Below, in pieces: positions 33,588 to 64,000 of a stretch of 64,000 nt of DNA. Origin of the DNA: Eledone cirrhosa (lineage: Eukaryota); contig OZ024742.1 in the NCBI GenBank assembly GCA_964016885.1, positions 203,670,001-203,734,000 of the forward strand, written 5' to 3'. Every line of letters starts with the position of its first letter. Within the stretch, counting starts at the first letter, position 1. The notes below the pieces were generated by a model. The model searched no databases. It was not told the origin of the DNA and was given only the letters and a program-made list of their open reading frames with translations. Position numbers and translations under genes: made by a program.

Positions 33588-34054
<467 letters not shown>

Positions 34055-41724: not shown

Positions 41725-42535
41725 TACGAGTAGGACCCCAGTCTCGTTTGTCCTCCATATTGCTGAACCATGAGATTACTTCCTGGGTGTTGACCCATAG
41801 GCTAAGTCTGGCGTTTTGCTTAACTTTTGGTATAACGCGGTCTAGGATTTTTTTACTGATTCTCCCTATGTCGGACTTTGTTTGGTTTATAAGCCTGATA
41901 GAAGGTTTACGGTCGAAATCGGATTTGTGGTCCTTCAGTGTGAAATAGGGAGTCCGTGGGTCTAGGGGTTCCGTGCGGTCGGCGACCCCGAGGCTGGAGG
42001 TAATTTGTTGTCCATCTCGATTTATGTCCTCGATGCTTGAATGGTTAGCCTTTTTATAGGTGGAGTTTAGGCTGCTCCTGATCAGTGTGTGGTATCTGTC
42101 GGGGTTGACGAAGTAGAGGTTACCAGTTTTATCCAAGTGCACCATGATGTCGTTGGTGTTTTCATACTCTGTTAATTTGCTACGGAGTTTTTGTAGGAAT
42201 CTGTTGTATCTGGGTTTGAATTTAATGCTCTTGACCAGTTGGAAAAGGTTATTCTCGAAGGGTGAGAGCATAGGGTTCGGAGGGGGAGATTTGTAGGTAT
42301 TAAATCCGAATCTCTCCTTGGTATCGAAGTCCTGATTTTCGCAATATCTGTCGTAGAAAAAAGTTCTCCATCTAAGTCTTTTCGCAAAGAGGTCGATCTT
42401 TTGCGTGAGCATCCGAAGGTAAAGTTTTCTCGGTGGAACTGGGGTGTTCTTGGTGGAGAAGTCGATGTTGTGTTTTCGCATGGTGCGGGTGAAAGAACTT
42501 GAGCTTAGCGGAAAAGTCTGGATACGGCGTGGTAG
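41722..42535 (-). mobile_element. PLE (Naiad-like) ORF N-terminal fragment
   Basis: ORF from 42481: FSTKN.PVP, KRLRWRTFF, FGF, DKTGNLY, YFTLKDHK.DF..KPSIRLIN.TKSDIGRISK.ILD. Truncated into (TA)n before the RT core. Confidence 0.85.
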
Positions 42536-43048
42536 GGTTATTTTATTAATATTAATAGAATAAATAATAGGAACTTAAAACCTAGTGGTAATAGCATAAA
42601 TAATGTACAAGATAACAAATGTAACTGTAGAGATAGATCTAAATGTCCGTTAAATAACAACTGCTTAGTTAAAAATATAGTATACAATTGTAATGTTAAA
42701 ACTGACTCTAATTCTTTTAACTACGTCGGTTCCACATCGACGGAATTTAAACTTCGCTATAATAACCACAAGAATTTTTTCACAGATCCAAGCAAAAAAT
42801 CTTCAACAGCACTATCAGGCGTACTCTGGCAACTTAAGCTAGATAACGTTAGATATTCGACGGCTTGGAATATAGTCTCAAGAGGTATTCCTTTTAATTC
42901 ATCCTCCGAGACATGTGACCTCTGCGCAGAGGAGATATTCTTTATACTAAAATCTAAAAATTCCCTTAATCTACGGACAAATTTATTCAGTTGCTGCAAA
43001 CATAGATTAAACTCAACTTTTAAATATAAATTTAAATTTAAAATGTAG
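42536..43048 (+). pseudogene. PLE GIY-YIG endonuclease, open frame without start codon (absent from ORF track)
   Basis: Manual translation: CNCRDRSKCPLNNNCLVKNIVYNC..YVGSTSTEFKLRYNNHK..CDLCAEE..LNLRTNLFSCCKH, stop at 43046-43048. Confidence 0.85.
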
Positions 43049-44603: not shown

Positions 44604-44832
44604 TCACACATACATATACATATATAGAGAGTTTGCTCCCCCCAAAATTGTGTATACACTTTGATTCCCTGGCTGTTAAATTATGTACACATTTTTGGGG
44701 ACACCCTGCATGTATATATATATATATATATATTACCCAATCTACTACCCTAAGTATTGAGTACTTTGGTGCGTTATGGTCCATCTGGTTCCTTACCACA
44801 TTTCCTTCGTTATATATATATATATATATATG

Positions 44833-46307: not shown

Positions 46308-49300
46308 TTGTAAAGGTTTGTGTGGGTGTTGTGGTGTATGGTGTATATGTAATATAGTGTAAAGGTTTGTGTGGGTGTTGTGGTGTATCGTGTATATGTA
46401 ATATAGTGTAAAGGTTTGTGTGGGTGTTGTGGTGTATGGTGTATATGTAATATAGTGTAAAGGTTTGTGTGGGTGTTGTGGTGTATGGTGTATATGTAAT
46501 ATAGTGTAAAGGTTTGTGTGGGTGTTGTGGTGTATGGTGTATATGTAATATAGTGTGAAGGTTTGTGTGGGTGTTGTGGTGTATGGTGTATATGTAATAT
46601 AGTGTGAAGGTGTGTGTGGGTGTTGTGGTGTATGGTGTATATGTAATATAGTGTAAAGGTTTGTGTGGGTGTTGTGGTGTATCGTGTATATGTAATATAG
46701 TGTAAAGGTTTGTGTGGGTGTTGTGGTGTATGGTGTATATGTAATATAGTGTGAAAGTGTGTGTGGGTGTTGTGGTGTATGGTGTATATGTAATATAGTG
46801 TAAAGGTTTGTGTGGGTGTTGTGGTGTATGGTGTATATGTAATATAGTGTAAAGGTTTGTGTGGGTGTTGTGGTGTATGGTGTATATGTAATATAGTGTA
46901 AAGGTTTGTGTGGGTGTTGTGGTGTATGGTGTATATGTAATATAGTGTAAAGGTTTGTGTGGGTGTTGTGGTGTATGGTGTATATGTAATATAGTGTGAA
47001 GGTTTGTGTGGGTGTTGTGGTGTATGGTGTATATGTAATATAGTGTGAAGGTGTGTGTGGGTGTTGTGGTGTATGGTGTATATGTAATATAGTGTAAAGG
47101 TTTGTGTGGGTGTTGTGGTGTATCGTGTATATGTAATATAGTGTAAAGGTTTGTGTGGGTGTTGTGGTGTATGGTGTATATGTAATATAGTGTAAAGGTT
47201 TGTGTGGGTGTTGTGGTGTATGGTGTATATGTAATATAGTGTAAAGGTTTGTGTGGGTGTTGTGGTGTATGGTGTATATGTAATATAGTGTGAAGGTTTG
47301 TGTGGGTGTTGTGGTGTATGGTGTATATGTAATATAGTGTGAAGGTGTGTGTGGGTGTTGTGGTGTATGGTGTATATGTAATATAGTGTAAAGGTTTGTG
47401 TGGGTGTTGTGGTGTATCGTGTATATGTAATATAGTGTAAAGGTTTGTGTGGGTGTTGTGGTGTATGGTGTATATGTAATATAGTGTGAAGGTGTGTGTG
47501 GGTGTTGTGGTGTATGGTGTATATGTAATATAGTGTAAAGGTTTGTGTGGGTGTTGTGGTGTATCGTGTATATGTAATATAGTGTAAAGGTTTGTGTGGG
47601 TGTTGTGGTGTATGGTGTATATGTAATATAGTGTAAAGGTTTGTGTGGGTGTTGTGGTGTATGGTGTATATGTAATATAGTGTAAAGGTTTGTGTGGGTG
47701 TTGTGGTGTATGGTGTATATGTAATATAGTGTGAAGGTTTGTGTGGGTGTTGTGGTGTATGGTGTATATGTAATATAGTGTGAAGGTGTGTGTGGGTGTT
47801 GTGGTGTATGGTGTATATGTAATATAGTGTAAAGGTTTGTGTGGGTGTTGTGATGTATCGTGTATATGTAATATAGTGTAAAGGTTTGTGTGGGTGTTGT
47901 GGTGTATGGTGTATATGTAATATAGTGTAAAGGTTTGTGTGGGTGTTGTGGTGTATGGTGTATATGTAATATAGTGTAAAGGTTTGTGTGGGTGTTGTGG
48001 TGTATGGTGTATATGTAATATAGTGTAAAGGTTTGTGTGGGTGTTGTGGTGTATGGTGTATATGTAATATAGTGTAAAGGTTTGTGTGGGTGTTGTGGTG
48101 TATGGTGTATATGTAATATAGTGTGAAGGTTTGTGTGGGTGTTGTGGTGTATGGTGTATATGTAATATAGTGTGAAGGTGTGTGTGGGTGTTGTGGTGTA
48201 TGGTGTATATGTAATATAGTGTAAAGGTTTGTGTGGGTGTTGTGGTGTATCGTGTATATGTAATATAGTGTAAAGGTTTGTGTGGGTGTTGTGGTGTATG
48301 GTGTATATGTAATATAGTGTAAAGGTTTGTGTGGGTGTTGTGGTGTATCGTGTATATGTAATATAGTGTGAAGGTTTGTGTGGGTGTTGTGGTGTATGGT
48401 GTATATGTAATATAGTGTAAAGGTTTGTGTGGGTGTTGTGGTGTATGGTGTATATGTAATATAGTGTGAAGGTGTGTGTGGGTGTTGTGGTGTATGGTGT
48501 ATATGTAATATAGTGTGAAGGTGTGTGTGGGTGTTGTGGTGTATGGTGTATATGTAATATAGTGTAAAGGTTTGTGTGGGTGTTGTGGTGTATGGTGTAT
48601 ATGTAATATAGTGTAAAGGTTTGTGTGGGTGTTGTGGTGTATGGTGTATATGTAATATAGTGTGAAGGTTTGTGTGGGTGTTGTGGTGTATGGTGTATAT
48701 GTAATATAGTGTAAAGGTTTGTGTGGGTGTTGTGGTGTATGGTGTATATGTAATATAGTGTGAAGGTTTGTGTGGGTGTTGTGGTGTATGGTGTATATGT
48801 ATATAGTGTGAAGGTTTGTGTGGGTGTTGTGGTGTATGGTGTATATGTATATAGTGTGAAGGTTTGTGTGGGTGTTGTGGTGTATGGTGTATATGTATAT
48901 AGTGTAAAGTTTTGTGTGGGTGTTGTGGTGTATCGTGTATATGTAATATAGTGTAAAGGTTTGTGTGGGTGTTGTGGTGTATGGTGTATATGTAATATAG
49001 TGTGAAGGTTTGTGTGGGTGTTGTGGTGTATGGTGTATATGTAATATAGTGTGAAGGTTTGTGTGGGTGTTGTGGTGTATGGTGTATATGTATATAGTGT
49101 AAAGTTTTGTGTGGGTGTTGTGGTGTATCGTGTATATGTAATATAGTGTAAAGGTTTGTGTGGGTGTTGTGGTGTATGGTGTATATGTAATATAGTGTGA
49201 AGGTTTGTGTGGGTGTTGTGGTGTATGGTGTATATGTAATATAGTGTGAAGGTGTGTGTGGGTGTTGTGGTGTATGGTGTATATGTAATATAGTGTAAAG

Positions 49301-52300
49301 GTTTGTGTGGGTGTTGTGGTGTATCGTGTATATGTAATATAGTGTAAAGGTTTGTGTGGGTGTTGTGGTGTATGGTGTATATGTAATATAGTGTAAAGGT
49401 TTGTGTGGGTGTTGTGGTGTATGGTGTATATGTAATATAGTGTAAAGATTTGTGTGGGTGTTGTGGTGTATGGTGTATATGTAATATCGTGTGAAGGTGT
49501 GTGTGGGTGTTGTGGTGTATGGTGTATATGTAATATAGTGTAAAGGTTTGTGTGGGTGTTGTGGTGTATCGTGTATATGTAATATAGTGTAAAGGTTTGT
49601 GTGGGTGTTGTGGTGTATGGTGTATATGTAATTATAGTGTAAAGGTTTGTGTGGGTGTTGTGGTGTATGGTGTATATGTAATATAGTGTAAAGGTTTGTG
49701 TGGATGTTGTGGTGTATGGTGTATATGTAATATAGTGTGAAGGTGTGTGTGGGTGTTGTGGTGTATGGTGTATATGTAATATAGTGTAAAGGTTTGTGTA
49801 GGTGTTGTGGTGTATCGTGTATATGTAATATAGTGTAAAGGTTTGTGTGGGTGTTGTGGTGTATGGTGTATATGTAATATAGTGTAAAGGTTTGTGTGGG
49901 TGTTGTGGTGTATGGTGTATATGTAATATAGTGTGAAGGTGTGTGTGGGTGTTGTGGTGTATGGTGTATATGTAATATAGTGTAAAGGTTCGTGTGGGTG
50001 TTGTGGTGTATCGTGTATATGTAATATAGTGAAAAGGTTCGTGTGGATGTTGTGGTGTATGGTGTATATGTAATATAGTGTAAAGGTGTGTGTGTGTGTT
50101 GTGGTGTATGGTGTATATGTAATATAGTGTAAAGGTTTGTGTGGGTGTTGTGGTGTATGGTGTATATGTAATATAGTGTGAAGGTTTGTGCGGGTGTTGT
50201 GGTGTATGGTGTATATGTAATATAGTGTAAAGGTTTGTGTGGGTGTTGTGGTGTATGGTGTATATGTAATATAGTGTGAAGGTTTGTGTGGGTGTTGTGG
50301 TGTATGGTGTATATGTATATAGTGTAAAGGTTTGTGTGGGTGTTGTGGTGTATCGTGTATATGTAATATAGTGTAAAGGTTTGTGTGGATGTTGTGGTGT
50401 ATGGTGTATATGTAATATAGTGTAAAGGTTTGTGTGGGTGTTGTGGTGTATCGTGTATATGTAATATAGTGTAAAGGTTTGTGTGGGTGTTGTGGTGTAT
50501 GGTGTATATGTAATATAGTGTAAAGGTTTGTGTGGGTGTTGTGGTGTATGGTGTATATGTAATATAGTGTAAAGGTTTGTGTGGGTGTTGTGGTGTATGG
50601 TGTATATGTATATAGTGTAAAGGTTTGTGTGGGTGTTGTGGTGTATCGTGTATATGTAATATAGTGTAAAGGTTTGTGTGGGTGTTGTGGTGTATGGTGT
50701 ATATGTAATATAGTGTGAAGGTTTGTGTGGGTGTTGTGGTGTATGGTGTATATGTAATATAGTGTAAAGGTTTGTGTGGGTGTTGTGGTGTATGGTGTAT
50801 ATGTAATATAGTGTAAAGGTTTGTGTGGGTGTTGTGGTGTATGGTGTATATGTAATATAGTGTAAAGGTTTGTGTGGCTGTTGTGGTGTATGGTGTATAT
50901 GTAATATAGTGTGAAGGTTTGTGTGGGTGTTGTGGTGTATGGTGTATATGTAATATAGTGTGAAGGTTTGTGTGGGTGTTGTGGTGTATGGTGTATATGT
51001 AATATAGTGTGAAGGTTTGTGTGGGTGTTGTGGTGTATGGTGTATATGTAATATAGTGTAAAGGTTTGTGTGGGTGTTGTGGTGTATGGTGTATATGTAA
51101 TATAGTGTGAAGGTTTGTGTGGGTGTTGTGGTGTATGGTGTATATGTATATAGTGTAAAGTTTTGTGTGGGTGTTGTGGTGTATCGTGTATATGTAATAT
51201 AGTGTGAAGGTGTGTGTGGGTGTTGTGGTGTATGGTGTATATGTAATATAGTGTAAAGGTTTGTGTGGGTGTTGTGGTGTATGGTGTATATGTAATATAG
51301 TGTGAAGGTTTGTGTGGGTGTTGTGGTGTATGGTGTATATGTAATATAGTGTAAAGGTTTGTGTGGGTGTTGTGGTGTATGGTGTATATGTAATATAGTG
51401 TGAAGGTGTGTGTGGGTGTTGTGGTGTATGGTGTATATGTAATATAGTGTAAAGGTTTGTGTGGGTGTTGTGGTGTATGGTGTATATGTAATATAGTGTG
51501 AAGGTTTGTGTGGGTGTTGTGGTGTATGGTGTATATGTATATGGTGTAAAGGTTTGTGTGGGTGTTGTGGTGTATCGTGTATATGTAATATAGTGTGAAG
51601 GTTTGTGTGGGTGTTGTGGTGTATGGTGTATATGTAATATAGTGTGAAGGTGTGAGTGGGTGTTGTGGTGTATGGTGTATATGTAATATAGTGTAAAGGT
51701 TTGTGTGGGTGTTGTGGTGTATGGTGTATATGTAATATAGTGTAAAGGTTTGTGTGGGTGTTGTGGTGTATGGTGTATATGTAATATAGTGTAAAGGTTT
51801 GTGTGGGTGTTGTGGTGTATGGTGTATATGTAATATAGTGTGAAGGTTTGTGTGGGTGTTGTGGTGTATGGTGTATATGTAATATAGTGTAAAGGTTTGT
51901 GTGGGTGTTGTGGTGTATGGTGTATATGTAATATAGTGTGAAGGTTTGTGTGGGTGTTGTGGTGTATGGTGTATATGTATATAGTGTAAAGTTTTGTGTG
52001 GGTGTTGTGGTGTATCGTGTATATGTAATATAGTGTAAAGGTTTGTGTGGGTGTTGTGGTGTATGGTGTATATGTAATATAGTGTGAAGGTTTGTGTGGG
52101 TGTTGTGGTGTATGGTGTATATGTAATATAGTGTAAAGGTTTGTGTGGGTGTTGTGGTGTATGGTGTATATGTAATATAGTGTGAAGGTTTGTGTGGGTG
52201 TTGTGGTGTATGGTGTATATGTATATAGTGTAAAGTTTTGTGTGGGTGTTGTGGTGTATCGTGTATATGTAATATAGTGTAAAGGTTTGTGTGGGTGTTG

Positions 52301-54589
52301 TGGTGTATGGTGTATATGTAATATAGTGTGAAGGTTTGTGTGGGTGTTGTGGTGTATGGTGTATATGTAATATAGTGTGAAGGTGTGTGTGGGTGTTGTG
52401 GTGTATGGTGTATATGTAATATAGTGTAAAGGTTTGTGTGGGTGTTGTGGTGTATCGTGTATATGTAATATAGTGTAAAGGTTTGTGTGGGTGTTGTGGT
52501 GTATGGTGTATATGTAATATAGTGTAAAGGTTTGTGTGGGTGTTGTGGTGTATGGTGTATATGTAATATAGTGTAAAGATTTGTGTGGGTGTTGTGGTGT
52601 ATGGTGTATATGTAATATAGTGTGAAGGTGTGTGTGGGTGTTGTGGTGTATGGTGTATATGTAATATAGTGTAAAGGTTTGTGTGGGTGTTGTGGTGTAT
52701 CGTGTATATGTAATATAGTGTAAAGGTTTGTGTGGGTGTTGTGGTGTATGGTGTATATGTAATTATAGTGTAAAGGTTTGTGTGGGTGTTGTGGTGTATG
52801 GTGTATATGTAATATAGTGTAAAGGTTTGTGTGGATGTTGTGGTGTATGGTGTATATGTAATATAGTGTGAAGGTGTGTGTGGGTGTTGTGGTGTATGGT
52901 GTATATGTAATATAGTGTAAAGGTTTGTGTAGGTGTTGTGGTGTATCGTGTATATGTAATATAGTGTAAAGGTTTGTGTGGGTGTTGTGGTGTATGGTGT
53001 ATATGTAATATAGTGTAAAGGTTTGTGTGGGTGTTGTGGTGTATGGTGTATATGTAATATAGTGTGAAGGTGTGTGTGGGTGTTGTGGTGTATGGTGTAT
53101 ATGTAATATAGTGTAAAGGTGTGTGTGGGTGTTGTGGTGTATGGTGTATATGTAATATAGTGTAAAGGTTTGTGTGGGTGTTGTGGTGTATCGTGTATAT
53201 GTAATATAGTGAAAAGGTTCGTGTGGATGTTGTGGTGTATGGTGTATATGTAATATAGTGTAAAGGTGTGTGTGTGTGTTGTGGTGTATGGTGTATATGT
53301 AATATAGTGTGAAGGTTTGTGCGGGTGTTGTGGTGTATGGTGTATATGTAATATAGTGTGAAGGTGTGTGTGGGTGTTGTGGTGTATGGTGTATATGTAA
53401 TATAGTGTAAAGGTTTGTGTAGGTGTTGTGGTGTATGGTGTATATGTAATATAGTGTGAAGTTTTGTGTGGGTGTTGTGGTGTATCGTGTATATGTAATA
53501 TAGTGTAAAGGTTTGTGTGGGTGTTGTGGTGTATGGTGTATATGTAATATAGTGTAAAGGTTTGTGTGGGTGTTGTGGTGTATGGTGTATATGTAATATA
53601 GTGTGAAGGTGTGTGTGGGTGTTGTGGTGTATGGTGTATATGTAATATAGTGTAAAGGTTTGTGTAGGTGTTGTGGTGTATGGTGTATATGTAATATAGT
53701 GTGAAGTTTTGTGTGGGTGTTGTGGTGTATCGTGTATATGTAATATTGTGTAAAGGTTTGTGTGGGTGTTGTGGTGTATGGTGTATATGTAATATAGTGT
53801 AAAGGTTTGTGTGGGTGTTGTGGTGTATGGTGTATATGTAATATAGTGTGAAGGTGTGTGTGGGTGTTGTGGTGTATGGTTTATATGTAATATAGTGTAA
53901 AGGTTCGTGTGGGTGTTGTGGTGTATGGTGTATATGTAATATAGTGTGAAGTTTTGTGTGGGTGTTGTGGTGTATCGTGTATATGTAATATAGTGTAAAG
54001 GTTTGTGTGGGTGTTGTGGTGTATGGTGTATATGTAATATAGTGTAAAGGTTTGTGTGGGTGTTGTGGTGTATGGTGTATATGTAATATAGTGTGAAGGT
54101 GTGTGTGGGTGTTGTGGTGTATGGTGTATATGTAATATAGTGTAAAGGTTTGTGTAGGTGTTGTGGTGTATGGTGTATATGTAATATAGTGTGAAGTTTT
54201 GTGTGGGTGTTGTGGTGTATCGTGTATATGTAATATAGTGTAAAGGTTTGTGTGGGTGTTGTGGTGTATGGTGTATATGTAATATAGTGTGAAGGTGTGT
54301 GTGGGTGTTGTGGTGTATGGTTTATATGTAATATAGTGTAAAGGTTCGCGTGGGTGTTGTGGTGTATGGTGTATATGTAATATAGTGCAAAGGTTCGTGT
54401 GGGTGTTGTGGTGTATCGTGTATATGTAATATAGTGTAAAGGTTCGTGTGGATGTTGTGGTGTATGGTGTATATGTAATATAGTGTAAAGGTGTGTGTGT
54501 GTGTTGTGGTGTATGGTGTATATGTAATATAGTGTAAAGGTTTGTGTGGGTGTTGTGGTGTATGGTGTATATGTAATATAGTGTGAAGG
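46308..54589. repeat. 49-bp satellite array (~169 units)
   Basis: Unit gtgtaaaggtttgtgtgggtgttgtggtgtatggtgtatatgtaatata. Highly homogeneous, with almost no C on the plus strand. Confidence 0.97.
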
Positions 54590-58595: not shown

Positions 58596-59189
58596 AACAC
58601 ACCGAGCATTATAATAAATGTTTGGTGAATCCATACGTACATATATATATGTGTGCATGTATGTATATATATATACATACTACTGTACGTCTGTATGTAC
58701 GTATACATACTTATATTTAAGTAACAGCCGTACTAAGAGTGGGAAATGACATTTCGTTTCATTTTTTCCGTTTATCGTTTTCGGTGCACCCGGCCGATTA
58801 ACCCACTCGATATGCAAATTGGGCTACTCAGTCCTTAATATGCATAAGGTAAGTATATACGTTCAACAATCTGGCAGGAAGGTATACGTTGCTGACGATA
58901 GCTAATAAGCTTGAAACTAGTACAGCGTTCCTTTGTCAGTGTTGAACAAACGAGCAACGATGGTTGCTAGACACTACGGCTTAATATGGGATGTTTGTTT
59001 ACAAACACACTGAGCATTATAATAAATGTTCGGTGAATCCATACGTACATATATATATGTAAGCATGTATGTATATATATATACATACTACTGTACGTCT
59101 GTATACATGTATGTATGTATGTGTACATACTTATATTTAAGTAACAGCCGTACTAAGAGTTGGAAATGAAATTTTGTTTCATTTTTTCC

Positions 59190-59195
<6 letters not shown>
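58596..59195 (+). mobile_element. ORF-less tandem repeat (408-bp period, ~1.5 units) containing an HHR; retrozyme/pLTR-like
   Basis: 58596-58775 recurs at 59004-59195 and ends in (TA)n. Homologous to 34956-35633. Confidence 0.78.
58886..58928 (+). ncRNA. Minimal type I hammerhead ribozyme
   Basis: acgttg-CTGACGA-tagct aata agctt-GAAA-ctag-TA-cagcgt. Confidence 0.85.
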
Positions 59196-59230
<35 letters not shown>

Positions 59231-59452
59231 CTCAAAGATTCCAAGTAATAAATTCGAGCACTATTAACATTAAATTAAAAGTCGAATGACATATATATAT
59301 GAAATAAAAATATAAAACAATTACAGAGGATAATTAAGGTTACATTTACCAAGACATGTATATTCAGCCTTGATAAAATTAATATTAATACTCTACTCCT
59401 GTACTGAATACTCCTTTCTCTCAGCCGTCAACCACATACGGATATATATATA

Positions 59453-60351
<899 letters not shown>

Positions 60352-60646
60352 AATATATCAACTAGCATAAGCGCACAGATGCACGCCTATGCCAGCAAAT
60401 ACACAGGTTATGTTATTTTTTTTTGGGGGGGGGGTAGTAGGCGTCTGTCATCTTACCATCCCATTCCTTCTAACTAGCCTCTGTGTCACGTGATTGATTC
60501 TTTAGAATCGGCCATTTGACTAGAGGCAGTGAGGATTTCAGTGCATGGAATTTAGTCCTCGCTAGCTGTTCCATCTACCGAATTATTATTATTTTTATAT
60601 GAGCCGCCAGTGTCCGCGCATTGCCTGGAGACTTAGCTGAGAATAG

Positions 60647-60728
60647 ACTCCCTGATGACGCAATGAATTCTCGACAGTTAGATTACGTAACTGTCTTTAT
60701 CCCATTGCAGAAACTAATTAGTTGGAGT
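60647..60728 (+). ncRNA. Type I hammerhead ribozyme, copy 1
   Basis: actcc-CTGATGA-cgcaatg..gacagtta/taactgtc..cattgca-GAAA-ctaattag-TT-ggagt. Confidence 0.85.
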
Positions 60729-61201
60729 GAAAATTTAAGTAAGTAAGTAAACATTTTTTTTTTTTAATTTTTTTAAAAGGATTTTCTTATTTTACGTCTT
60801 TTATATTATTGTTCTGCATCCTCCTGCATTGAAACACCTAGGTACTATGACATAACCTGTGTATTTGCTGGCATGGGCGTGCATCTGTGCGCTTATGCTA
60901 GTTGATATATTAAATTATCTATATTTATCTCCAAATCACTGATTTGTCGAGCAAACCTGCCAAAACCACTTCTAAAAAAATTTTTTTTTTGGGGGGGTGT
61001 TAGTAGGCGTCTGTCATCTTACCATCCCATTCCCTCTGTGTCACGTGATTGATTCTTTAGAATCGGCCATTTGACTAGAGGCAGTGAGGATTTCAGTGCA
61101 TGGAATTTAGTCCTCGCTAGCTGTTCCATCTACCGAATTATTATTATTTTTATATGAGCCGCCAGTGTCCGCGCATTGCCTGGAGACTTAGCTGAGAATA
61201 G

Positions 61202-61283
61202 ACTCCCTGATGACGCAATGGATTCTCGACAGTTAGATTACGTAACTGTCTTTATCCCATTGCAGAAACTAATTAGTTGGAGT
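61202..61283 (+). ncRNA. Type I hammerhead ribozyme, copy 2
   Basis: Same sequence and fold as 60647-60728, with one substitution in stem II. Confidence 0.85.
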
Positions 61284-61351
61284 GAAAATTTAAGTAAGTA
61301 AGTAAAAATCTTTTTGAAAAAATTTTTTTAAAAGGATTTTCTTATTTTACG

Positions 61352-61444
<93 letters not shown>

Positions 61445-61599
61445 TATTGTGATCTCCCTAGAGTAACTGGTAATTCCTAATCTATATAGCTTCTATATGG
61501 CTATCCTTGTAGTAAAGCACTCTCGGGCCTTCTTTACATCTCTATCTCGGATCTACCCACTGGTTTGACATTCACCTCTCGCCTAACCCACAGACAACA

Positions 61600-63300
61600 C
61601 CATGCAAAAACAAACTATTACCATCTTCATGAAGAATATCTCCATACCTCGAGAAAAGTCTACTTGCAAGCGATGTTACAGAAAGCTGACACATTCGTGA
61701 AACTCATGCGGTGGCGCGCATACTTCTTCGACAAACTCAACCAGACTCAAGAACGTGACCAACAGGAGATATGCGGTTTTAAAACCTACTATTCGTCACA
61801 ACCCAAGCCTCCGTTATCGTTCTTTGAAGTCGATCTTTTAACATGATTAAAGGAGTCAAATTCAAACGCTACTCTAACAGAATCCAGCAACCCCTATTCC
61901 ATAAGATAAGGGAATACCGAAAACCAACGACATCCTTGTGCTCACCGACTAAACCGGCAACCTATACTTTGTCAAGCAGGGTAGGTACCACACACTGATT
62001 AAATACAGTCTGGCTTCCACTTATAGAAAGTCCAATTGACGTATGATCCACGAAATTAACGACTAAGGATGCACCATCATTTGAAGACCGAACTGAATCT
62101 CTAAAATAGCGGCAAAGGTATTTTACACTTAACGGCCATAAGTCAGACTTTGATAGAAACTCCACTTTCCGGCTCATAAATCCTATGAAGTCCAACATCG
62201 GGAGGATCTGTAAAATAATCTTGGATAGGATCTTACAGAAAGTAAAACAAGTGAGGTTCAGCCTCCGAGGGCTATTATCAAATACTGTTTAAATACATCT
62301 CCCTCCGAATCTCACGCCTATCCGCCTATGTTTGGATTTTTCAGGAATATGCACCACACTACAATGTTGCCCTGCGGAAAAATGGATTCAATGAGGGACC
62401 CACCTACTACACCCATTCCCCACCAACCGAGGACCTGGGAGACCCCACCGCACCCTAAATATTATCTTGTTTAACACTCCTCACAACGCTGAAGTCGCCA
62501 CATGAATCACAAATACCGCATTTCCCGACGTCGAAGACGCTACTTTTTTCCTAAAATAATTCTCAAAATCTACCATGCGTCCTGGAGGCCGAAGGTTGTT
62601 TATTATTTTTTTTCAAATTTTGGGTTGGCAAAATTGGGGTGCGTCCTCGAGGACGAAGCGTCTTCGGCGCCGGAAAATACGGTACCTTCTTTAAACTACT
62701 GAATAAACACTTCTCCTTACACCACCGTAGCCACAAAATCTTCATCAAAAACTCAGTCAAACTCTCGTTAAGCACAACACCTAACTTCGCACAAACATCG
62801 CCTTTTTCAATATAACTAAAATCAACTCTAGCAGAACACCCACACAGACTAAGACGTTATCCCAACCAGGCAATGCAAATACACCGACCCAAATAAATGC
62901 CTTCTCGACACCAAATGCAGAGAAATGAATTTGGTATATAAATGTAACGTAATAACGGAGCAATCCAACAATGCCTATAAAGGCTTCACTGCTTGTGAAT
63001 TTAAAACAAGATTCCACCAACACTAACGCCAACACAGCTTATGAAACCTGGCCCGTAGAAACGCTACCAGACTATCCAGACACATATGGGACCTACGCCA
63101 TAACAATAAGACCTTCAAACTGCAATTAGAGTCTCTTCACAAAAGCCAGACCATACACCGGGAGTCACCTCCCGTGTAACCTCAGTTACGAGGGACGACA
63201 GCTCAACAAAAAGAGCGAACTCATCACTTCCAGCAAACACGGCATTTACAAGACCTACCTCTACCTCAGACCTCTACACGGCCCCAGAAGGTAAGACCAC
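61600..63300 (+). mobile_element. Decayed, internally deleted PLE (Naiad-like)
   Basis: N-terminal FVKLMRWRAYFF and HKSDFDRNSTFRLINPMKSNIGRI; the RT core is absent. GIY-YIG remnants (C..KC..NLVYKC, LNKKSE) lie at ~62870-63250. Interrupted by a MITE. Confidence 0.75.
62516..62682 (+). mobile_element. Tc1/mariner (pogo/Tc2-like) MITE, copy 3
   Basis: Same TIR and body as 40038-40220, with a TA duplication. Nested in the PLE. Confidence 0.9.
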
Positions 63301-64000
63301 TAATTACTATACACCCATTTCCCCTTTACACCCCCACCCCGTTGTACATACACACACATACATACCAACGCATAAATAATAATAAAAAAGAAGACGAGCA
63401 CTCTAAAACAGCTAAAGTTCCTTTGTTGGATCTTTTACTGGCCTACATGTACTGAAAGATCTTGTTGATAGTTGGTAAATCCATGACAATATATTGTATC
63501 TTTAATCTCGTTAGATTTTTAAAGACCTGCTTCAAGACTGATAGTTTCTGCATTGGAACAAATAGTGTTAAAGAGATTCTGGGTAATCTCCACAAGAACA
63601 TACAGGTAATTCTCTACGACCTGTTCTTTATAAAATATAGTCCAACTGCATATGACCCTTTCGAAGCTAGCATAGTCTTTGCTTATTAACATTATTCAGT
63701 ATCTAATACATTTTAAAAGTTGACAGAACTAGTTTAGACAATGGGGCATTGAGACTTGAGAGCTAATCTCTACATTCTTTCTAAATTTTTCCCACATTTG
63801 ACTAATCGTTTTAACTGAATGATGACTTGCGATGGGTTTGAAATATAGTCTGTATCTATTATTTCCCTTTGTGCTTCCTCTTTTACTAATTCACCTGCTT
63901 TCCTATTTCCCCTAATATATATTTAGCCTGGAATCCAAATCATCGTTATTTTCTCATAGATAGTTATCTATTCTTAGAACATACCCAATACCCCTAACCT

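Follow-up and report, generated by a model that had tools for sequence, protein, structure and literature searches.

Within the 64,000 nucleotides of Eledone cirrhosa genomic DNA analysed here (the window) lies one copy of a non-coding repeat that carries a predicted hammerhead and is present in high copy number; its arms finish inside (TA)n tracts, at two fixed sites each marked by a hairpin. On balance, we take it to have been inserted by a Hydra-clade Penelope enzyme that copied a self-cut, probably circularised RNA of unit length. Its insertion ends are like those of an intact Penelope element, so that the enzyme of the latter likely copied the unit from RNA. Mobilisation by Penelope-like elements via circular RNA has been proposed for metazoan retrozymes (PMC7229834, 10.64898/2026.07.22.740005), and the present family, which has every feature of a metazoan non-LTR retrozyme that can be tested in genomic DNA, is classed as one here.

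The insertion in the window

The copy in the window is a 1.7-unit arm joined to a short opposed arm, the two lying inside a (TA)n tract. Its parts are given below, with unit positions counted from the base after the predicted cut (position 1).

60291..60347, no strand: left part of the (TA)n target tract, in which arms end across the family
60348..60416, minus strand: short opposed arm covering unit positions ~125-205, with start site B as its 3' end, beyond which (TA)n follows
60416..61361, plus strand: long arm of 946 nt (1.7 units), 5'-truncated; its 3' end is start site A
60631..60744, plus strand: hammerhead 1, core motif 60647-60728, predicted cut 60723/60724
60631-60635 with 60740-60744, plus strand: distal stem I of hammerhead 1
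60639-60644 with 60667-60672, plus strand: candidate pseudoknot of hammerhead 1
60724..61278, plus strand: predicted cut-to-cut monomer, 555 nt, 37% GC, non-coding, folding z -6.2
60806..60834, plus strand: start site A at 60806 (unit position 83) and bulged hairpin A at 60811-60834
60859..60910, plus strand: long G-U-rich hairpin (predicted fold) within the 122-nt tail between sites A and B
60928..60951, plus strand: start site B at 60928 (unit position 205) and bulged hairpin B at 60929-60951
61186..61299, plus strand: hammerhead 2, core motif 61202-61283, predicted cut 61278/61279
61362..61447, no strand: right part of the (TA)n target tract

Two type I hammerhead motifs 555 nt apart in a direct repeat had been predicted here, and both were found in place, the repeat having 97% identity over 300 nt at that spacing and each motif having the expected palindromic stem III and bipartite stem II. 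Their description as intact needs qualifying at two points: between the core and the first G-C pair of stem II a C faces an A, and the triplet is GUU. Also borne out were the (TA)n on both flanks, the inverted piece on the 5' side (60335-60416, mirroring 60847-60928, with short-arm homology reaching to ~60335 through TA) and the lack of an ORF between the motifs, the longest ATG ORF of the circularised unit being 27 aa in sense and 36 aa in antisense, which leaves no coding capacity. What had been read as a dimer proved instead to be the long arm (60416-61361), which crosses two predicted cut sites, together with the short opposed arm. A unit of 555 nt is true of the window copy and not of its subfamily, whose median is 562 nt (34 monomers), since the spacing reflects an 11-nt deletion near 61034 that is private to the window copy (1 of 87 segments). 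The G-U-rich hairpin at 60859..60910 is kept in all subfamilies; target-site duplications are unreadable inside (TA)n.

Several other repeats occupy the same window. Next to the insertion, at 59442-60300 on the minus strand, is the decayed remnant of a mariner-like DNA transposon, whose terminal inverted repeats are 68 nt long and which matches helix-turn-helix weakly, and at 58596-59195 a direct repeat of ~408-420 nt, of very high depth in DNA runs, is perhaps a further retrozyme-like family. Positions 46309-54589 hold an 8.3-kb satellite (49-nt unit, 169 copies, 96% matches) with extreme G/C strand skew.

A dispersed family of tandem units

The unit belongs to a dispersed mobile family and not to one locus: in the 3.0-Gb assembly, 4,343 sites match exactly a 25-nt piece spanning the cut and 0 match its control, and family copies are spread over many contigs. 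They consist of head-to-tail tandem units with one type I hammerhead per unit, in arms of up to 2,052 nt (3.7 units); the window unit is of low GC content (37%, below 50%) and holds no ORF. LTR-type ends, that is, fixed 5' and 3' ends with a 4-bp duplication, are absent, the 5' ends being scattered. Related subfamilies, two of which were met by BLAST in flanks and then searched for, have units of 523-554 nt that are 69-88% identical over their length.

An E-box-like CACGTG palindrome at window 61044-61052 recurs in the majority sequences of almost every subfamily and may be part of a promoter inside the unit. In the 523-nt sister family (L172-L191, 99% identical), the three bases at unit positions 472-474, where the strand of the candidate pseudoknot meets distal stem II, vary strongly and have been substituted in several different ways, and at position 473 the units of one insertion differ in 6 of 12 cases; this looks like an error hot spot of reverse transcriptase (RT) or a modified base, and is absent in the window's subfamily. 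A 331-nt contig of sequencing run X5 (organism B) aligns at low depth to most of the unit (window 60994-61308), with 12 differences and 11 gap letters, and another species may hold a relative.

The hammerhead motif and its predicted cut site

Each motif is made up of stem I (ACUCC/GGAGU), CUGAUGA, a two-part stem II, GAAA and the triplet GUU before the predicted cut, with a 3-bp stem III inside the 10-nt palindrome ACUAAUUAGU. The type I hammerhead signature is present in its core CUGANGA, GAAA, A15.1-U16.1, NUH triplet, stems I-III and open stem I. Both 82-nt motifs fold with z of about -4, and 0/200 shuffles did as well; it counts against the favoured explanation that, at minimum energy, the CUGAU core is folded onto AUUAG, which hides the active form. 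Rfam gave no match at gathering score and no hammerhead at E up to 10, since so long a stem II falls outside its models. At the base of that stem the Watson-Crick pair (usually G10.1-C11.1) is absent, C (27/28 aligned rows) facing A (28/28), a variant such as occurs in some natural motifs; like the GUU triplet, it counts against the favoured explanation.

When 28 diverse copies are aligned, 92.6% of cells are paired, against 32-42% in slid controls, and 7 of the 31 pairs have two-sided changes; the second pair of stem II, for instance, is found as U-A, C-G, G-C and A-U. Invariance of the core within these rows is circular, because they were selected by the core pattern. Sister families found by BLAST, at ~70% overall identity (69-71%), keep the core, the C-A facing and the palindrome alike. 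Distal stem I is 97% paired and, with a candidate pseudoknot, extends the motif to ~115 nt. For this pseudoknot we hypothesise a GAGAAU:AUUCUC helix between the internal loops of stem I and stem II, which is 90.5% paired and conserved, with two-sided changes in 0 of its 6 pairs. So modelled, the predicted hammerhead would be a new architecture, combining a C-A closing pair, a 50-nt stem II and a stem I-stem II pseudoknot.

Genomic copies carry traces of the predicted cut. Genome-wide, 3,560 copies contain the 20 nt after it, 3,428 also 5 nt more upstream and 3,359 10 nt more, so that 132 are lost over the first 5 nt upstream of the cut versus 69 over the next 5 (p=3e-5); ~96% of copies run through the cut site and ~2% of passages end there. 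Three of the 85 sampled insertions (L004, L006 and L102) have one arm each that stops at the cut, where a hand estimate expects ~0.4 among ~120 arms, and in L192, picked from the genome-wide listing, both arms stop there, one base apart. An impression that 5' ends do not pile up at the cut (2/82 within 5 nt) was discarded, that sample being biased by its cut-spanning pattern and the unbiased counts having a small excess. These stops point indirectly to a true break or junction of the template at the predicted bond, and we hold cleavage at this site to be highly probable. Published systems count against the favoured explanation: in Xenopus, 8 of 9 predicted dimers did not cut in vitro (10.64898/2026.07.22.740005), and the anole Penelope element used mainly uncut RNA as its substrate and still inserted normally when its ribozyme was mutated (PMC11167929).

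Two start sites, one for each arm

Insertion anatomy was read from 59 loci taken in order along contig C1, which after removal of two duplicates left 57, and from 28 best-hit insertions, 85 in all. The 59 loci comprise 110 segments, 41 of which end at unit position 83 (site A) and 45 at 205/208 (site B); ends at these positions almost all run into (TA)n, and 5' ends are scattered. Two-armed insertions pair one A end with one B end in 42 of 44 cases, two A or two B ends in none, and have one other end in the remaining 2. The window copy follows the pattern, its long arm starting from site A and its short arm from site B, and a young sister family with a 523-nt unit has the same two-site pattern at positions 61 and 181. 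At both A and B a UA-rich stretch provides microhomology to the target, and a separate bulged hairpin lies just 3' of each.

This is Penelope-type anatomy: a tail lies between two internal 3' termini, copies are truncated at the 5' end and occur in tandem and head to head, and the target is (TA)n. Truncation, partial tandems, head-to-head inversion and a tail at one end are described as Penelope hallmarks (PMC8557442, PMC3846280), and in vitro the anole Penelope protein cuts and extends both target strands, starting at two internal sites that bound the tail (PMC11167929).

A Penelope family with the same hairpin

The same genome contains a young Penelope family (L082-L101), reached by way of the broken ORF downstream of the insertion, with an intact 784-aa ORF in tandem 3.54-kb (3,542-nt) units; at L093 more than 2.6 such units stand in tandem. 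The protein carries RWR, DKT, CxCX5C, CxxC and CxH, as described for the Hydra clade, and its placement in that clade rests on these motifs (PMC8557442); Pfam matches neither it nor the ORF pieces in the window. Copies of this family end in (TA)n at two sites 83 nt apart, and a hammerhead-like fold, with GAAA, stem III and GUC intact and a deviant 5' core, ends 20 nt before the first of them.

A bulged hairpin lies 3-5 nt 3' of all four termini, two in the retrozyme unit and two in the 784-aa Penelope element. Written as a descriptor (a 3-4-bp stem ending TC/GA, a 2-nt bulge and a 4-5-bp upper stem), it matches the 555-nt unit twice and the 3,542-nt Penelope unit twice, all four matches falling directly 3' of a terminus, and two matches were reached in 0/300 shuffles of the former and 4/300 of the latter. 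The descriptor was drawn up after the four termini had been seen, which counts against the favoured explanation, and for this reason out-of-sample flanks are the fair test: across 0.77 Mb of masked unrelated flanks, 25 of 95 matches lie 55-115 nt upstream of (TA)n versus 5 downstream (p=0.0003), in 13 sequence groups; the next distance bin has 3 upstream and 13 downstream. At least 12 other repeat families were noted to have this bulged hairpin at a distance of 60-105 nt on the upstream side of (TA)n, examples being L038:752, L052:837, L090:710, L097:6789, L130:4458 and window 34853 (plus), 41239 and 10511 (both minus). Such matches suggest that a large guild of Penelope-mobilised elements may inhabit this genome.

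Beyond the shape of the hairpin, blastn of the unit against 20 Penelope loci of the 784-aa family found no sequence similarity; because no alignable sequence is shared, this family is a candidate helper and not a proven one, and the actual helper may be another Penelope family. Further Hydra-like Penelope fragments lie in the window at 207-1366, 41741-43018, 33825-33932 and 44721-44810, one of them 91% identical to the intact family. That the repeat is a non-autonomous element mobilised by Penelope, as had been predicted, we nevertheless consider very likely from the genomic record: the insertion anatomy, the hairpin common to the unit and an intact Hydra-clade element, and the failure of the pseudo-LTR alternative (below) all back it.

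Template and alternative explanations

Most arms run over the predicted junction. Among 82 arms sampled by a pattern across the cut, 66 cross one cut site or more and 22 cross two or more, and none of 129 copies retrieved by DNA search has an insertion or deletion at the junction. When 17 polymorphic columns are compared, units within an arm differ in 3 of 501 comparisons (218 expected) and opposite arms of an insertion in 9 of 289 (125 expected); 19 haplotypes occur among 48 insertions, and 37/37 common alleles were seen fixed across tandem units. With one haplotype per insertion and alleles fixed across units, each allele seems to have passed through a one-unit stage and then been re-multiplied, a stage that a circle would explain directly, and a circular template is on this reasoning probable. 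Several observations count against it. Arms of L004, L006 and L102 cross one or two cut sites and stop at the next, for which partly cut linear multimers account at least as simply, a circle needing a slight pause at its ligation junction; the two arms of the window copy differ at polymorphic column 151 and its two units by the 11-nt deletion; and among rare variants in multiply covered columns, 16 of 211 are common to all units. Counting likewise against the favoured explanation, private variants have no excess of A-to-I editing scars (A>G 13 vs T>C 25, p=0.33). A>G makes up 4/16 of the variants common to all units versus 7/195 of the rest, too few to rely on, and 10 of the 17 polymorphic columns are A/G, unpolarised. 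Sequencing runs X1 and X2 have even coverage over unique flanks and are in appearance DNA runs.

The same element and helper might instead use a linear read-through of a tandem array, cut at some hammerheads, with no circle in mobilisation. The arms of L004, L006 and L102 fit such a template, as does L192, whose arms both stop as on linear cut RNA; it is plausible that the motif cleaves weakly or needs a dimer to do so, uncut RNA is the main anole substrate in vitro (PMC11167929), and multimeric RNAs exist in axolotl (PMC7229834). Yet a daughter copied in this way cannot outgrow its source, whereas 33/82 arms exceed one unit after several subfamily generations, and new alleles would be expected first in one unit, whereas within-arm differences are no commoner at polymorphic columns (0.6%) than at invariant ones (0.8%) and all 37 common alleles are fixed across units; we regard this reading as rather unlikely. 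A cut linear monomer, from which RT rebuilds tandems by repeated jumps from its 5' end to a 3' end, would account both for one haplotype per insertion and for the surplus of arms that stop at the cut. As R2 elements illustrate, untemplated bases usually mark such template jumps; here ~96% of copies cross the junction, with neither insertion nor deletion in the 129 examined, and jumping is improbable.

Two further explanations deny the element its independence or its ribozyme. The unit could be the pseudo-LTR of an autonomous Penelope element, joined here to the broken Penelope ORF at 61.6-63.3 kb, which the original prediction does not mention and which lies on the same strand 290 nt downstream of the insertion; the Penelope-like behaviour of the termini also agrees with this. 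However, 90 nt of (TA)n separate the two, and the ORF belongs to an old Hydra-like Penelope copy (window 61448-63460, plus strand) with stops, frameshifts and a repeat inserted near 62.56-62.69 kb, its pieces being 38-67% identical to the intact 784-aa family; this downstream copy is a separate, older insertion sharing the (TA)n tract with the retrozyme copy. A decayed minimal-hammerhead-like motif was noted in it near 63390-63410. The original prediction had proposed searching the genome for a unit attached to an RT/GIY-YIG ORF, and with one Penelope protein as probe and flanks of 1.5-3.5 kb, 0/85 insertions were joined to one without (TA)n between; a Hydra-like match lies within 1 kb of 8/85, all 8 with intervening (TA)n, though other clades could escape a single probe. 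Nor do the scattered 5' ends share an upstream continuation, and the 20 Penelope loci gave no blastn match, so that the pseudo-LTR reading is already largely refuted and stands as very improbable. A dead or non-catalytic motif, with tandems arising by DNA-level duplication of short insertions, would agree with the non-canonical base of stem II and the silence of Rfam; against it are a core and palindrome unchanged across families at ~70% identity, covarying stems, the excess of stops at the predicted scissile bond, and 3' termini that are fixed where 5' ends vary, which leave it scarcely credible.

Comparison with known systems

As in metazoan non-LTR retrozymes, a tandem non-coding unit of low GC with one type I hammerhead each occurs in thousands of dispersed copies (PMC7229834, 10.64898/2026.07.22.740005). 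The unit is longer (~560 nt) than the 170-400 nt of metazoan retrozymes and within the 51-972 range of Li et al. (10.64898/2026.07.22.740005), and unlike in the retrozymes of the portions of these papers compared, stem II is oversized and bipartite, C-A is invariant at the foot of that stem, a candidate pseudoknot is present, and short two-armed insertions in (TA)n replace long arrays. Two mapped start sites with a shared signal are not described for metazoan retrozymes in the parts of PMC7229834 and 10.64898/2026.07.22.740005 covered here. Relative to the dimeric minimal hammerheads of newt, axolotl and Penelope elements (PMC4209133), helix III has 3 pairs and the motif may work as a monomer, and there are an extra A between 11.1 and G12 and a stem II of ~50 nt.

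With Hydra-clade Penelope elements (PMC8557442) the family shares 5' truncation, partial tandems, a head-to-head inverted copy, a tail at one end, (TA)n and a hammerhead upstream of the termini, and it differs from them in a unit without ORF; its tail of 122 nt compares with 83 nt in the local Hydra family and 30-40 nt reported for other clades (PMC8557442). A further parallel concerns anole Poseidon PAc (PMC11167929), where two internal RT starts likewise bound the tail, both strands of an AT-rich target are cut and extended, and the protein is a predicted dimer, as proposed here for the helper. PAc (PMC11167929) differs in that no strand preference for a start site was seen, whereas here the two arms of an insertion use different sites in 42/44; the ribozyme was dispensable there, and some arms here stop at the cut; and here a hairpin and UA-rich microhomology to the target accompany each site.

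Proposed mechanism and significance

The favoured course of events, a self-cut and probably circularised unit copied by a Hydra-clade Penelope enzyme, would begin with transcription of a tandem copy, whose hammerheads are predicted to cut after GUU, with the arms stopping exactly there as indirect support. A host ligase would then close the monomer, by analogy with coral, mussel and axolotl retrozymes. A Penelope RT-endonuclease, likely as a dimer, would bind the two bulged hairpins and cut both strands of (TA)n, one cDNA being primed at site A and one at site B, in keeping with the A-B pairing of the arms. Each RT would go on across the cut site, presumably circling, for up to nearly four units before a variable stop, and the two truncated ends would join head to head, as the insertions have them.

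A broader and more tentative idea, which we put forward as possible but somewhat doubtful, is that the portable bulged hairpin is the RT loading signal of Hydra-clade Penelope elements, and that, with a pair of them, one per dimer subunit, any RNA can be inserted at the two ends of a break in (TA)n. The retrozyme would then be a ribozyme-made circle bearing such a pair, copied repeatedly from both sites, with a signal common to a dozen other repeat families and a new hammerhead architecture.

The retrozyme class is already known, and what appears new here is the length of the unit, the excess size of its motif and the occurrence of start hairpins in a pair. In the titles and abstract openings of the literature compared, there is no description of the family, of the shared hairpin or of a one-site-per-arm rule, and the supplements of PMC8557442, PMC7229834 and PMC11167929 may show related motifs. 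Copying of retrozymes into DNA by Penelope enzymes, or from a circular template, was proposed earlier but not demonstrated at insertion ends in that literature. The present family offers exact start sites, a candidate RNA signal in common with an intact young candidate helper, and genomic traces of cleavage, so that helper, signal and circle can each be tested in the existing in vitro Penelope assay, and its strict rule of one site per arm explains the Penelope "tail" as two-ended priming.
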